64,000 nucleotides of DNA from Escherichia coli. Lineage in GTDB: Bacteria; Pseudomonadota; Gammaproteobacteria; Enterobacterales; Enterobacteriaceae. The position numbers and the translations under genes are program-made. The DNA lies in the NCBI RefSeq assembly GCF_041886205.1, contig NZ_CP169029.1, one strand, 5' to 3'. Under the pieces are notes generated by a model, which worked only from the letters and a program-made list of their open reading frames with translations, was not told the DNA's origin and ran no database searches. This document shows positions 10,630-32,102 of this stretch, piece after piece (the stretch's first letter is position 1; the number at the start of each line of letters is the position of its first letter).

Positions 10630-11056
10630 TATTATTGTCTCTCTGTATTCCTTCCCTACTCCTGTCTGACCCTGAAACATCACTGTTCAGAGTCGCTACC
10701 CGTCACGATAGACCGAAATCATGAAGATTCACGGCGCGCAATGCCTGGGTCTACGGTGAGAAGACCGTTGCCTTGTGGCAGCTATCGACATCACGAATGG
10801 CGTCTGTCCACACCATACGTAGATTTCACTAGCACGGTAAACATGGTATTTACATGCATGGTTATGCGCATATAAGAATACTGTTTTTTTTCTTCCTCGA
10901 ATGTTTTCGCAAAACACCAGGGGATTGTCAAAGCAAAACATCGATTTTTAGTACAACATGCCAGATATTCATTAACAGGGGCGTTTATTCATCATTTAAT
11001 CGGCTTATAAAGCGTGAAATTTAAGTAGCAGAGGTGATAATGACGGGAGAATTTGA

Positions 11057-17383: not shown

Positions 17384-17531
17384 CATTTTATCTGCCTGTA
17401 CGGCAGTGAACATGGTGGGCGGGTGGAGTATGTTACCAGTGAATTTCTAAGCTGCCTGTACGGCAGTGAACGCCAACTTTCACAGCCTTTGCAAGATTGT
17501 TCCTTTCTAAGCTGCCTGTACGGCAGTGAAC
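17384..17531 (-). CRISPR. Orphan type I-F CRISPR mini-array: 3 repeats, 2 spacers of 32 nt, no adjacent cas genes
   Basis: Minus-strand 28-nt repeat GTTCACTGCCGTACAGGCAGCTTAGAAA (the E. coli/Yersinia subtype I-F repeat) at 17504-17531 and 17444-17471, plus a degenerate terminal copy at 17384-17411. Spacers at 17472-17503 and 17412-17443 are exactly 32 nt each. Confidence 0.85.
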
Positions 17532-26811: not shown

Positions 26812-27236
26812 ATCCCCTCCAGAAATATGTGACTTATCCTTTACGCTGGCAGTATAACGGGAAAGGCCTTGCTAATACGTGATGACATCACATTTAAGCA
26901 TGGCAAATGTCTGAAAAATGAGCGAATAATCGCGTTATACTCCCTCTTGCTGATAAGTCTGCAAAAACAACAAAATCAAATAATTAGCATGATAAATTAT
27001 TTTTTATTACGCCTAAAGGATTAAATCTTTTGCGTGCACTACACTGTCAATCAGACAAATGACTATATGGGGCAACCCGCTGTTGCCCTAAATCAAATTT
27101 ACTGGATTTATTTATCTGGTGAATGACTCGCCTTCGTTTTTAAAATAGCCGCGCATTATTTCCGTCGTCACTTTTTTACGACGACCCTATAAAACGACCA
27201 TATTTTTCACAGGGTCAATTTTTAATTGAGGTGGAT

Positions 27237-28255: not shown

Positions 28256-28426
28256 AACATCGGTGCAGTTTGTAATTAAAGCGCAAGAATATCTTTAAAT
28301 GAAAACGAATACTCTACTGCTCCTTATGCATAACATTTCCTTTTAATTGCAACTTTACTCGTCCTTCCGCTTTCAGTAGTGTGTCATCGCGCATTTCGAC
28401 TTCATCTTTGCAAGGACTGGGTTTTC

Positions 28427-29326
28427 ATGTTTTCTGGGCTGTTAATCATTCTGGTTCCCCTGATTGTGGGTTACCTTATTCCGCTTCGCCAACAAGCTGC
28501 GTTAAAAGTTATTAATCAGCTATTAAGCTGGATGGTTTACCTTATTCTCTTTTTTATGGGTATCAGTCTGGCGTTTCTCGATAACCTCGCCAGTAACCTG
28601 TTGGCGATTCTGCATTATTCTGCCGTCAGTATTACCGTTATTTTACTGTGTAATATTGCCGCCCTGATGTGGCTCGAGCGAGGCCTGCCGTGGCGCAACC
28701 ACCATCAGCAAGAAAAACTCCCGTCGCGTATTGCGATGGCGCTGGAGTCGCTAAAACTGTGCGGCTTAGTAGTGATTGGTTTTGCCATTGGTCTGAGTGG
28801 ACTGGCTTTCTTACAACACGCGACCGAAGCCAGTGAATACACGTTAATTTTGCTACTTTTCCTCGTTGGTATTCAGTTGCGCAATAATGGCATGACCTTA
28901 AAGCAGATTGTCCTTAATCGCCGGGGAATGATTGTCGCCGTGGTGGTGGTTGTCAGTTCATTAATTGGTGGTTTAATTAACGCCTTTATTCTTGATCTCC
29001 CCATCAATACCGCGCTGGCAATGGCCTCCGGTTTCGGCTGGTATTCTCTTTCCGGTATTTTATTGACCGAATCTTTTGGTCCGGTAATCGGGAGCGCGGC
29101 GTTTTTTAATGATCTGGCCCGTGAACTGATTGCTATTATGTTGATCCCTGGGCTGATTCGCCGCAGCCGCTCTACTGCACTGGGCTTATGCGGTGCCACA
29201 TCAATGGATTTCACCCTGCCCGTTCTTCAACGTACTGGCGGGCTGGATATGGTCCCGGCGGCAATTGTTCACGGTTTTATTCTTAGCCTGTTAGTGCCGA
29301 TCCTCATCGCCTTTTTCTCTGCGTAA
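28427..29326 (+). CDS. lysO: Lysine exporter LysO (YbjE)
   Basis: ORF track 28379..29326; start trimmed to MFSGLLIILVPLIVGYLIPL (299 aa); polytopic membrane protein. Confidence 0.93.
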   Translation: MFSGLLIILVPLIVGYLIPLRQQAALKVINQLLSWMVYLILFFMGISLAFLDNLASNLLAILHYSAVSITVILLCNIAALMWLERGLPWRNHHQQEKLPSRIAMALESLKLCGLVVIGFAIGLSGLAFLQHATEASEYTLILLLFLVGIQLRNNGMTLKQIVLNRRGMIVAVVVVVSSLIGGLINAFILDLPINTALAMASGFGWYSLSGILLTESFGPVIGSAAFFNDLARELIAIMLIPGLIRRSRSTALGLCGATSMDFTLPVLQRTGGLDMVPAAIVHGFILSLLVPILIAFFSA

Positions 29327-29359
29327 TACCTCTCTGGCGGTAGATCCCTGCCGCCAAAA

Positions 29360-29373
29360 TTGCGCTAAATCAA
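29360..29373 (+). promoter_or_regulatory. Candidate FNR site upstream of hcp
   Basis: TTGcgctaaATCAA resembles TTGAT-N4-ATCAA; hcp-hcr is a known FNR-activated operon. Confidence 0.4.
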
Positions 29374-29432
29374 TCTCCCTTAAAGTTGCATGAAAAATCC
29401 CTTTTATCCCCGCGTTAAGCGTCTTAACCTTA

Positions 29433-29455
29433 AACATGTATATTAAATATAACTT
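29433..29455 (+). promoter_or_regulatory. Candidate NsrR operator overlapping the hcp promoter
   Basis: aacATGtATatTAAATATaac is an AT-rich inverted repeat resembling the NsrR consensus (AAnATGCATTT...AAATnCAT); hcp is a known NsrR-regulon member. Confidence 0.4.
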
Positions 29456-29469
29456 TAAAAGGTGTGATC

Positions 29470-31122
29470 ATGTTTTGTGTGCAATGTGAACAAACTATCC
29501 GTACTCCGGCAGGAAACGGCTGCTCATACGCGCAGGGGATGTGTGGTAAAACGGCGGAAACTTCTGACCTTCAGGATTTACTCATCGCGGCGCTGCAAGG
29601 GCTTTCTGCCTGGGCGGTAAAAGCGCGTGAATACGGCATCATCAACCACGATGTTGACAGCTTCGCGCCACGTGCCTTTTTCTCAACCCTGACCAACGTT
29701 AACTTCGATTCTCCGCGTATTGTCGGCTACGCTCGTGAAGCGATTGCCTTGCGCGAGGCGCTGAAAGCACAATGCCTGGCTGTAGATGCCAACGCGCGCG
29801 TCGATAACCCGATGGCTGACCTGCAACTGGTGAGCGATGATCTCGGCGAGCTGCAACGTCAGGCAGCAGAATTTACCCCTAACAAAGATAAAGCGGCGAT
29901 TGGCGAAAACATTCTCGGCCTGCGTCTGCTGTGCCTGTATGGCCTGAAAGGTGCGGCGGCCTATATGGAACACGCGCATGTTCTCGGTCAATACGACAAC
30001 GATATTTATGCCCAGTACCATAAAATCATGGCGTGGCTGGGGACCTGGCCTGCCGATATGAACGCGCTTCTTGAGTGTTCAATGGAAATCGGCCAGATGA
30101 ACTTCAAAGTGATGAGCATTCTGGATGCAGGCGAAACCGGTAAATACGGTCACCCGACGCCAACCCAGGTCAACGTCAAAGCGACGGCGGGTAAATGCAT
30201 TCTGATTTCCGGTCACGATCTCAAAGATCTCTACAACCTGCTGGAACAGACCGAAGGCACAGGCGTTAATGTCTACACCCACGGCGAAATGCTGCCTGCG
30301 CATGGCTACCCGGAGCTGCGTAAATTCAAGCATCTGGTCGGTAACTACGGCAGCGGCTGGCAGAATCAGCAAGTAGAGTTCGCTCGTTTCCCTGGCCCCA
30401 TCGTGATGACCTCGAACTGCATCATCGACCCAACCGTAGGCGCTTATGACGATCGTATCTGGACCCGCAGCATCGTTGGCTGGCCTGGCGTGCGTCATCT
30501 GGATGGCGAAGATTTCTCTGCGGTCATCGCCCAGGCGCAACAAATGGCGGGCTTCCCGTACAGCGAAATTCCTCACCTGATCACCGTGGGCTTTGGTCGC
30601 CAGACGCTGCTTGGTGCAGCCGATACGCTGATTGATCTGGTTAGCCGTGAAAAACTGCGTCATATCTTCCTGCTTGGTGGCTGTGACGGCGCACGCGGCG
30701 AGCGCCACTACTTCACCGATTTCGCCACCAGCGTGCCGGATGACTGCCTGATCCTGACCCTCGCCTGTGGTAAATATCGCTTTAACAAACTTGAGTTTGG
30801 CGATATCGAAGGTCTGCCGCGTCTGGTAGATGCAGGTCAATGTAACGATGCTTACTCAGCAATTATTCTGGCTGTCACTCTGGCAGAGAAACTGGGCTGT
30901 GGTGTGAACGATCTGCCGCTGTCGCTGGTGCTCTCCTGGTTTGAACAGAAAGCGATTGTCATTCTGCTGACGCTGCTTTCTCTGGGCGTGAAAAATATCG
31001 TCACCGGCCCGACTGCACCTGGTTTCCTGACACCAGACCTGCTGGCGGTGCTGAACGAGAAATTCGGCCTGCGTTCTATCACCACTGTTGAAGAAGACAT
31101 GAAGCAACTGTTGAGCGCGTAA
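29470..31122 (+). CDS. hcp: Hybrid-cluster protein (NO-detoxifying, S-nitrosylase)
   Basis: ORF track 29464..31122 (GTG); start trimmed to [30 protein letters not shown] (550 aa) with the N-terminal Cys cluster. Confidence 0.96.
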
Positions 31123-31133
31123 GGAGTTTGTCG

Positions 31134-32102
31134 ATGACGATGCCAACGAATCAATGCCCGTGGCGGATGCAGGTTCATCACATTACGCAAGAAACGCCGG
31201 ATGTGTGGACGATTTCCCTGATTTGCCACGATCACTACCCATATCGCGCCGGGCAATATGCACTGGTCAGCGTGCGAAACTCAGCGGAAACGCTGCGTGC
31301 TTACACCATTTCCTCCACGCCAGGCGTGAGTGAATATATCACCCTGACCGTGCGGCGGATTGATGACGGTGTCGGCTCCCAGTGGCTGACGCGCGATGTA
31401 AAACGCGGTGATTATCTCTGGCTTTCGGACGCGATGGGGGAATTTACCTGCGACGATAAAGCAGAAGATAAATTCCTGTTGCTGGCGGCAGGCTGCGGCG
31501 TCACGCCGATTATGTCGATGCGTCGCTGGCTTGCGAAGAACCGTCCACAGGCCGATGTGCGGGTGATCTACAACGTGCGTACGCCGCAGGATGTTATTTT
31601 CGCCGATGAGTGGCGTAACTATCCGGTAACGCTGGTGGCAGAAAATAACGTTACCGAAGGCTTTATCGCTGGTCGTCTCACTCGCGAACTGCTGGCAGGT
31701 GTACCTGACTTAGCTTCACGTACCGTGATGACCTGCGGCCCGGCTCCGTATATGGATTGGGTAGAGCAGGAAGTGAAAGCGCTCGGCGTGACGCGTTTCT
31801 TTAAAGAGAAATTCTTCACCCCAGTAGCAGAAGCGGCGACCAGCGGTCTGAAATTCACCAAACTGCAACCGGCACGAGAATTTTACGCCCCGGTTGGCAC
31901 CACGCTACTGGAGGCGCTGGAAAGCAATAACGTTCCGGTTGTCGCTGCCTGCCGTGCGGGTGTTTGCGGCTGCTGTAAGACAAAAGTGGTTTCCGGTGAA
32001 TATACGGTGAGCAGCACAATGACGCTGACCGACGCCGAAATCGCTGAAGGTTACGTACTGGCCTGCTCCTGCCATCCGCAGGGGGATTTGGTTCTCGCAT
32101 AA
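31134..32102 (+). CDS. hcr: NADH oxidoreductase for Hcp (FNR-like flavin/NAD domain plus 2Fe-2S ferredoxin)
   Basis: ORF track 31128..32102 (TTG); start trimmed to ATG MTMPTNQCPWRMQVHH (322 aa); C-terminal CRAGVCGCC 2Fe-2S motif. Confidence 0.95.
   Translation: MTMPTNQCPWRMQVHHITQETPDVWTISLICHDHYPYRAGQYALVSVRNSAETLRAYTISSTPGVSEYITLTVRRIDDGVGSQWLTRDVKRGDYLWLSDAMGEFTCDDKAEDKFLLLAAGCGVTPIMSMRRWLAKNRPQADVRVIYNVRTPQDVIFADEWRNYPVTLVAENNVTEGFIAGRLTRELLAGVPDLASRTVMTCGPAPYMDWVEQEVKALGVTRFFKEKFFTPVAEAATSGLKFTKLQPAREFYAPVGTTLLEALESNNVPVVAACRAGVCGCCKTKVVSGEYTVSSTMTLTDAEIAEGYVLACSCHPQGDLVLA

Follow-up and report, generated by a model that had tools for sequence, protein, structure and literature searches.

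The lysO-hcp intergenic region

The stretch of Escherichia coli DNA analyzed here (64,000 nucleotides, referred to as the window) carries lysO (ybjE), hcp and hcr in this order, all on the + strand, with lysO as the upstream co-directional neighbor of hcp and 143 bp of intergenic sequence between the two. The hcp-hcr operon specifies a high-affinity NO reductase/S-nitrosylase system, and its promoter has reportedly been dissected in work by Filenko in 2005 and 2007, Partridge in 2009 and Chismon in 2010. Alignment of window positions 29280-29480 with the lysO-hcp intergenic region of E. coli K-12 MG1655 revealed that every base is the same, so that published K-12 data apply to this DNA base for base. 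The window strand is opposite to that of the MG1655 record, and the MG1655 v3 position is obtained as 943,284 minus the window position. The promoter is thus that of the K-12 locus with no difference, with an unchanged transcription start, FNR box (-72.5) and NsrR operator, the last lying across that start. Of 5,426 complete E. coli genomes, 5,424 carry a 311-bp segment spanning this region, in every case under lysO and hcp; six matches lie on plasmid-labeled records, and a few E. coli genomes hold two copies.

The original prediction placed both an FNR-like and an NsrR-like site in the hcp-hcr promoter, within positions 29360-29455, and both are found there (Table 1). The edges of this interval are the outer bases of the two sites, 29360 being the first base of the FNR box and 29455 the last base of the 11-1-11 NsrR operator, so that known regulatory sites had been placed to the base from sequence alone. 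The same two hcp sites were derived independently by phylogenetic footprinting (Rodionov 2005, PMC1274295). Two elements had been left out, namely a candidate NarL/NarP site just upstream of 29360 and a second NsrR-like half-site inside the interval. Because the NarL/NarP site lies outside, positions 29360-29455 do not take in the whole regulatory region.

Table 1. Features of the lysO-hcp-hcr locus, with window positions and, where given, positions relative to the hcp transcription start (+1).
Feature	Position	Strand	Remarks
lysO (ybjE) stop codon TAA	29324..29326	+	K-12 annotation through the identical alignment; ORF end 29326
Candidate NarL/NarP 7-2-7 site TACCTCT-CT-GGCGGTA (TACCTCTCTGGCGGTA)	29327..29342	.	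outside 29360-29455
GC-rich stem-loop GGCGGTAG-ATCC-CTGCCGCC	29336..29355	+	right after the lysO stop; overlaps the right NarL heptamer
FNR box TTGCGCTAAATCAA	29360..29373	.	center 29366.5, -72.5
Site II, candidate: half-site AAGTTGCATGA (29383-29393), then A-tract and CCTTTT	29383..29405	.	center about -45
-35 element TTTTAT, weak, putative	29402..29407	+	17-bp spacer to the -10 hexamer
-10 hexamer TAACCT (TAnnnT)	29425..29430	+	-14 to -9; assignment based on conservation and the mapped +1
NsrR operator, 11-1-11 inverted repeat AACATGTATAT-T-AAATATAACTT	29433..29455	.	-6 to +17, center +6
Transcription start (+1), T	29439	+	experimentally mapped; 31-nt 5' UTR
Shine-Dalgarno sequence AAGGTG	29459..29464	+	read from the sequence; conserved
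hcp (hybrid cluster protein) CDS	29470..31122	+	ATG 29470
hcr (NADH oxidoreductase) CDS	31134..32102	+	K-12 annotation mapped onto the window; ORF

GTDB species genomes were scanned once with a degenerate pattern for the N-terminal coding region of hcp, which yielded 120 loci, and 74 distinct Enterobacterales hcp promoters were aligned. The mapped hcp start is the T in AAACATG-T-ATATT (Rodionov 2005, Fig. S1, PMC1274295), and its assignment to window position 29439 agrees independently with the curated FNR position of -72.5. Conservation together with this start makes TAACCT the evident -10 hexamer, with T29425 and A29426 invariant in the alignment and T29430 conserved in ~80%, the variants being TAATCT, TACCCT and TATGCT. 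Upstream, 80-100% of the aligned sequences keep CTTTT at 29401-29405, which overlaps the putative -35 element, and conservation falls to 10-50% over the spacer 29406-29424 of the 74 promoters. A promoter scan at hcp returned no consensus sigma-70 promoter, as is expected of a promoter that depends on an activator. The fold of the hcp 5' UTR RNA is not significant (z = 0.35), and no Rfam family was found in the hcp promoter region.

The upstream FNR box and a candidate NarL/NarP site

The FNR box TTGCGCTAAATCAA matches 8 of the 10 specified bases of TTGAT-N4-ATCAA; its right half is perfect, and both mismatches fall in the left half, TTGCG. Matches with two mismatches to this consensus number 46 in the 64-kb window compared with 33 expected, and on these counts alone the box is not distinguishable from chance. 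The case for a real site is made by its position, its conservation and binding data in the literature. The center at 29366.5 lies at exactly -72.5 from the published start at 29439, which is the position listed for the hcp-hcr FNR site by Myers 2013 (Table 1, PMC3688515). The supplement of the same study reports the motif TTGATTTAGCGCAA as ChIP-seq-positive for hcp at 913,134 in an older MG1655 numbering, and TTGATTTAGCGCAA is the reverse complement of TTGCGCTAAATCAA. An offset of +778 puts this motif on window positions 29360-29373, and the offset is validated by the aqpZ/ybjD motif of that supplement, which also falls exactly on a second FNR box of the window. hcp-hcr is classed there as "Activated" by FNR, with an hcp expression ratio of 0.43 (Myers 2013, PMC3688515).

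All 14 positions of the box, including the TTGCG half and the central CTAA, are 80-100% conserved in the 74 Enterobacterales promoters, and within E. coli the 30-mer around it is found exactly in 5,399 of 5,426 complete genomes (99.5%). The distance from the FNR center to the -10 hexamer is 58.5 bp in 66 of the 74 promoters, which come from several families. At the homologous place in Budvicia and Aeromonas lies a perfect TTGAT-N4-ATCAA box. FNR acts at the majority of its activated promoters in class II fashion, from a site at -41.5, and the -72.5 position at hcp is unusual but documented. Distal FNR sites of class I promoters, like that of hcp, are also listed for ackA-pta (-74.5) and ydjXYZ (-60.5) (Myers 2013, Table 1, PMC3688515), and in all three promoters the FNR dimer is centered further upstream than usual, by at least one helical turn. 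The hcp box differs in keeping a left half that is conserved although it departs from the consensus.

The second FNR box of the window, TTGCCCTAAATCAA at 27083-27096, is one base off the hcp box and lies in the divergent intergenic region of ybjD and aqpZ, 147.5 bp upstream of the aqpZ ATG (27237) and 2.3 kb from the hcp box. Of 28 further Enterobacteriaceae loci, 22 have kept this box, and it is ChIP-seq-positive with a regulatory outcome that was not assigned (Myers 2013 supplement, PMC3688515). The two boxes are nearly the same in sequence, and both are ChIP-positive and conserved; their flanks are unrelated, so that neither is a duplicate of the other.

The candidate NarL/NarP site begins at the base directly after the lysO stop codon. 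Binding here is known from the literature, and the center is reportedly placed at -104.5 relative to the hcp start by Chismon et al. 2010. The sequence has two mismatches to TACYYMT-NN-AKRRGTA, a quality of match that occurs five times in the window compared with 2.7 expected and is not significant alone. The pattern TACYYC-N3-GGCGGTA is conserved in Enterobacteriaceae, part of which could be explained by the conserved hairpin that overlaps it. Candidate NarP sites were marked at hcp by Rodionov 2005 (Fig. S1, PMC1274295), who also cite NarL/NarP dependence.

This hairpin (29336-29355) has a predicted stability of about -16.5 kcal/mol, and all eight of its pairs stay intact in 40 Enterobacteriaceae sequences. 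Compensatory changes turn the closing G:C pair into C:G in three cases and into A:U in two, another pair toggles among U.G, U:A and C:G, and the loop varies in length and sequence. The stem-loop probably belongs to the 3' end of the lysO mRNA. We also considered an intrinsic terminator between the two genes and rejected it, since the hairpin is followed by AAAATTG with no U-tract and the terminator scan finds none. Seven of the loci, from Yersinia, Serratia, Edwardsiella and Providencia, are without both the NarL site and the hairpin; these share another conserved block, roughly AATA(A/G)TTCYCATYCGCA, upstream of the FNR box (corresponding to ~29327-29359).

The NsrR operator and a second NsrR-like site

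The 23-mer AACATGTATATTAAATATAACTT, centered at 29444 and overlapping the transcription start, consists of two 11-bp AAGATGCATTT-like half-sites in inverted orientation with 1-bp spacing, and it is the sole match to the degenerate 11-1-11 consensus in the 64 kb (0.04 expected). We built an NsrR matrix from 25 published CFT073 sites (Mehta 2015, Table 4, PMC5320621) with hcp left out. On this matrix the operator scores 25.6 bits and is the top match in the 64-kb window, a value reached by none of 200 dinucleotide shuffles, whose maxima were 14.2 ± 2.2 bits. Read on the opposite strand, the 23-mer is the hcp entry of the same Table 4, where only ytfE ranks above it among the 11-1-11 sites of the CFT073 genome. 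The ChIP-seq summit of that study (CFT073 967,971) maps to window position 29442, 2 bp from the operator center, and hcp was induced 43.7-fold under NO-generating nitrate growth (Mehta 2015, PMC5320621). A standard published NO reporter plasmid is built on NsrR repression of the hcp promoter.

With the FNR box at its curated -72.5 position and the NsrR ChIP-seq summit this close to the operator center, spacing and sequences fit the known FNR and NsrR control of hcp, as had been proposed, and in the comparison with published and curated site positions neither site is clearly displaced from where it was mapped.

Across the 74 aligned Enterobacterales promoters the operator is conserved about as well as the FNR box, and the 30-mer around it is found exactly in 5,178 of 5,426 complete E. 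coli genomes. The half-sites keep the pattern AAnnTGnAT / ATnCAnnTT in distant genera, where substitutions vary the motif without leaving it (AACAAGCATTATAAATGCAACTT in Serratia and Yersinia, for example). Nearly every Enterobacterales locus has an NsrR site of 20-27.6 bits at ~-25 to -31 relative to the ATG; the exceptions are Trabulsiella and two loci of Yersinia, whose top-scoring NsrR match lies at site II. The distance between the FNR and NsrR sites ranges from 76.5 to 80.5 bp, the NsrR site sliding by up to 4 bp, with Mixta as an outlier that is shorter on both this measure and the distance from FNR to the -10 hexamer. A fixed distance from FNR to the -10 hexamer and a sliding NsrR site would be expected if FNR is phased with RNA polymerase and NsrR only overlaps the start. 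The claim that the arrangement is a conserved feature is thereby borne out, both sites being kept across Enterobacterales promoters and within E. coli genomes.

The operators of ytfE and hmp resemble that of hcp in having inverted 11-bp AAGATGCATTT-type half-sites, 1 bp apart, that overlap the core promoter. At hcp the two half-sites, AACATGTATAT and AAGTTATATTT, reach ~12.5-13 bits each compared with 15.7 for ytfE. Unlike ytfE and hmp, hcp also needs the activator FNR, so that release of NsrR is necessary but not sufficient for its expression.

Two further NsrR-like sequences were found elsewhere in the window. A matrix match at 28333-28355, upstream of lysO (15.5 bits), was dismissed because it falls inside the range of the shuffle maxima. 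The sequence AACATCGATTTTTAGTACAACAT at 10937-10959 corresponds, in reverse complement, to the NsrR site listed for trxB (Mehta 2015, Table 4, PMC5320621) and scores 13.8 bits on this matrix, which is in the chance range for the window.

Positioned between the FNR box and the -35 element, site II overlaps the region of the -35 and of alpha C-terminal domain (alpha-CTD) docking. At 18.0 bits it is the second-best 23-bp NsrR matrix match in the 64-kb window. Its half-site differs in strength between lineages, the K-12 allele AAGTTGCATGA scoring 9.7 bits compared with 13.0 bits for the CFT073 allele AAGTTGCATTA, which equals either half of the main operator in strength and is listed computationally as an 11-bp motif under the hcp peak (Mehta 2015, Table 2, PMC5320621). 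Of 5,426 E. coli genomes, 4,159 (~77%) contain the exact K-12 36-mer around site II. Across genera the half-site is patchy: it scores at least 9 bits in 20 of 67 aligned promoters (background frequency 0.0004), and Salmonella, Enterobacter and others have lost it. The A-tract and CTTTT are the only parts present throughout, so that the block may equally be alpha-CTD/-35 DNA. We therefore consider it possible, though rather unlikely, that the half-site at 29383-29393 serves as a functional auxiliary NsrR operator. If it did, NsrR would also block the alpha-CTD/-35 docking that FNR needs, and the tightness of NO control of hcp would depend on the strain through the strength of the lineage allele.

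Combined control of hcp-hcr by anaerobiosis and NO

The interval 29360-29455 is almost certainly the regulatory region of the E. coli hcp-hcr operon, acting as an AND-type gate for anaerobiosis and NO. In this gate hcp-hcr transcription would require anaerobiosis and would be released by NO, FNR being the oxygen-sensing activator and NsrR, of the Rrf2 family, the NO-sensing repressor. The core promoter, with its TAACCT hexamer and poor -35 element, is predicted to be weak and to become active only when activated. Activation at hcp follows a class I mechanism. Without oxygen, a [4Fe-4S] FNR dimer on the -72.5 box would activate from upstream of the polymerase, presumably through the alpha-CTD docked on the A-rich DNA at about -45, and where nitrate or nitrite is present NarL/NarP at -104.5 may boost FNR activation. 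Holo-NsrR on the 23-bp inverted repeat from -6 to +17 would block RNA polymerase, probably by steric occlusion, until NO nitrosylates the iron-sulfur cluster of NsrR, whereupon the repressor would dissociate and hcp-hcr be derepressed. The sequences and positions of the sites, their occupancy in vivo by FNR and NsrR, activation that depends on FNR and strong induction when NO is generated are documented by the present analysis or by published data. We infer, or take from established knowledge, which -35 and -10 hexamers are used, the contact with the alpha-CTD and the occlusion step.

Other readings of the promoter have to be weighed against this one. The excess of two-mismatch matches in the window (46 compared with 33 expected) and the non-consensus left half-site are what one would see if the FNR-like box were a functionless chance near-match, with anaerobic control exerted elsewhere or indirectly. 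We give this reading almost no probability and regard it as effectively refuted by the ChIP-seq-positive motif at the exact location (Myers 2013, PMC3688515), by the curated -72.5 position with its fixed spacing to the -10 hexamer, by the contrast between 14 positions at 80-100% conservation and a flanking spacer at 10-50% in the 74 promoters, and by the perfect consensus at the homologous place in Budvicia and Aeromonas. The AT-rich palindrome over the start might likewise be ordinary promoter, initiation or 5'-UTR sequence rather than an NsrR operator, as it overlaps the start and the 5' UTR, is AT-rich as many initiation regions are, and could be conserved for other reasons too. Against this stand the 25.6 bits on a matrix that excludes hcp, with 0 of 200 shuffles reaching that score, the NsrR ChIP-seq summit 2 bp from the center of the palindrome, the half-site pattern specific to NsrR that is kept in distant genera, and a 5' UTR RNA without a significant fold; taken together, these observations make the ordinary-sequence explanation wholly improbable.

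That hcp is driven mainly by a sigma-E-type promoter, and not by an FNR-dependent sigma-70 promoter, also appears very unlikely. The suggestion arises from Myers 2013 (PMC3688515), where no sigma-70 ChIP peak is reported at hcp-hcr and Rhodius 2006 is cited for sigma-E dependence, and from a 2025 paper that names hcp as one of the NsrR targets also listed for the RpoE regulon. However, hcp/ybjW is not mentioned in the main text of Rhodius 2006, and a search near hcp for a sigma-E promoter (a GGAACTT-type -35 and a TCNNA-type -10, 15-18 bp apart) with the loose core AACTT-N15-18-TCNNA gave no match. The same pattern recovers the known rybB promoter at 60945-60970, a sigma-E-type core promoter immediately upstream of the RybB sRNA (Rfam RF00110, 60980-61058) that served as the positive control for the scan. 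The conserved TAnnnT at a fixed distance from the FNR box instead fits a sigma-70 class I promoter, and the absent sigma-70 peak would be most simply explained by NsrR repression in the nitrite-free medium of that ChIP study.

The FNR/NsrR arrangement is therefore real, conserved, ordinary and already known, and the original prediction was right in presenting it as no novelty, this being the textbook E. coli hcp-hcr promoter. Its value is one of annotation only, a correct account of how hcp-hcr comes to be expressed solely under anaerobic nitrosative stress. The questions raised by site II and the lysO hairpin are refinements of a well-understood promoter and advance no open question.

Outside the Enterobacterales, the hcp promoters of Aeromonas have the perfect FNR box ~108 bp upstream of the ATG, and no NsrR site above 14 bits was found in them. 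Those of Shewanella have an NsrR-like palindrome at ~-32 together with a box of the type GTGAT-N4-(T/C)TCAT, without the FNR consensus. The regulatory wiring of hcp is reshuffled across orders.

Elsewhere in the window, two CRISPR-DR4 repeats (Rfam RF01317) lie 60 bp apart on the - strand at 17444-17531 and look like a small orphan CRISPR remnant, and positions 2306-2440 match the STnc130 sRNA (RF02084).
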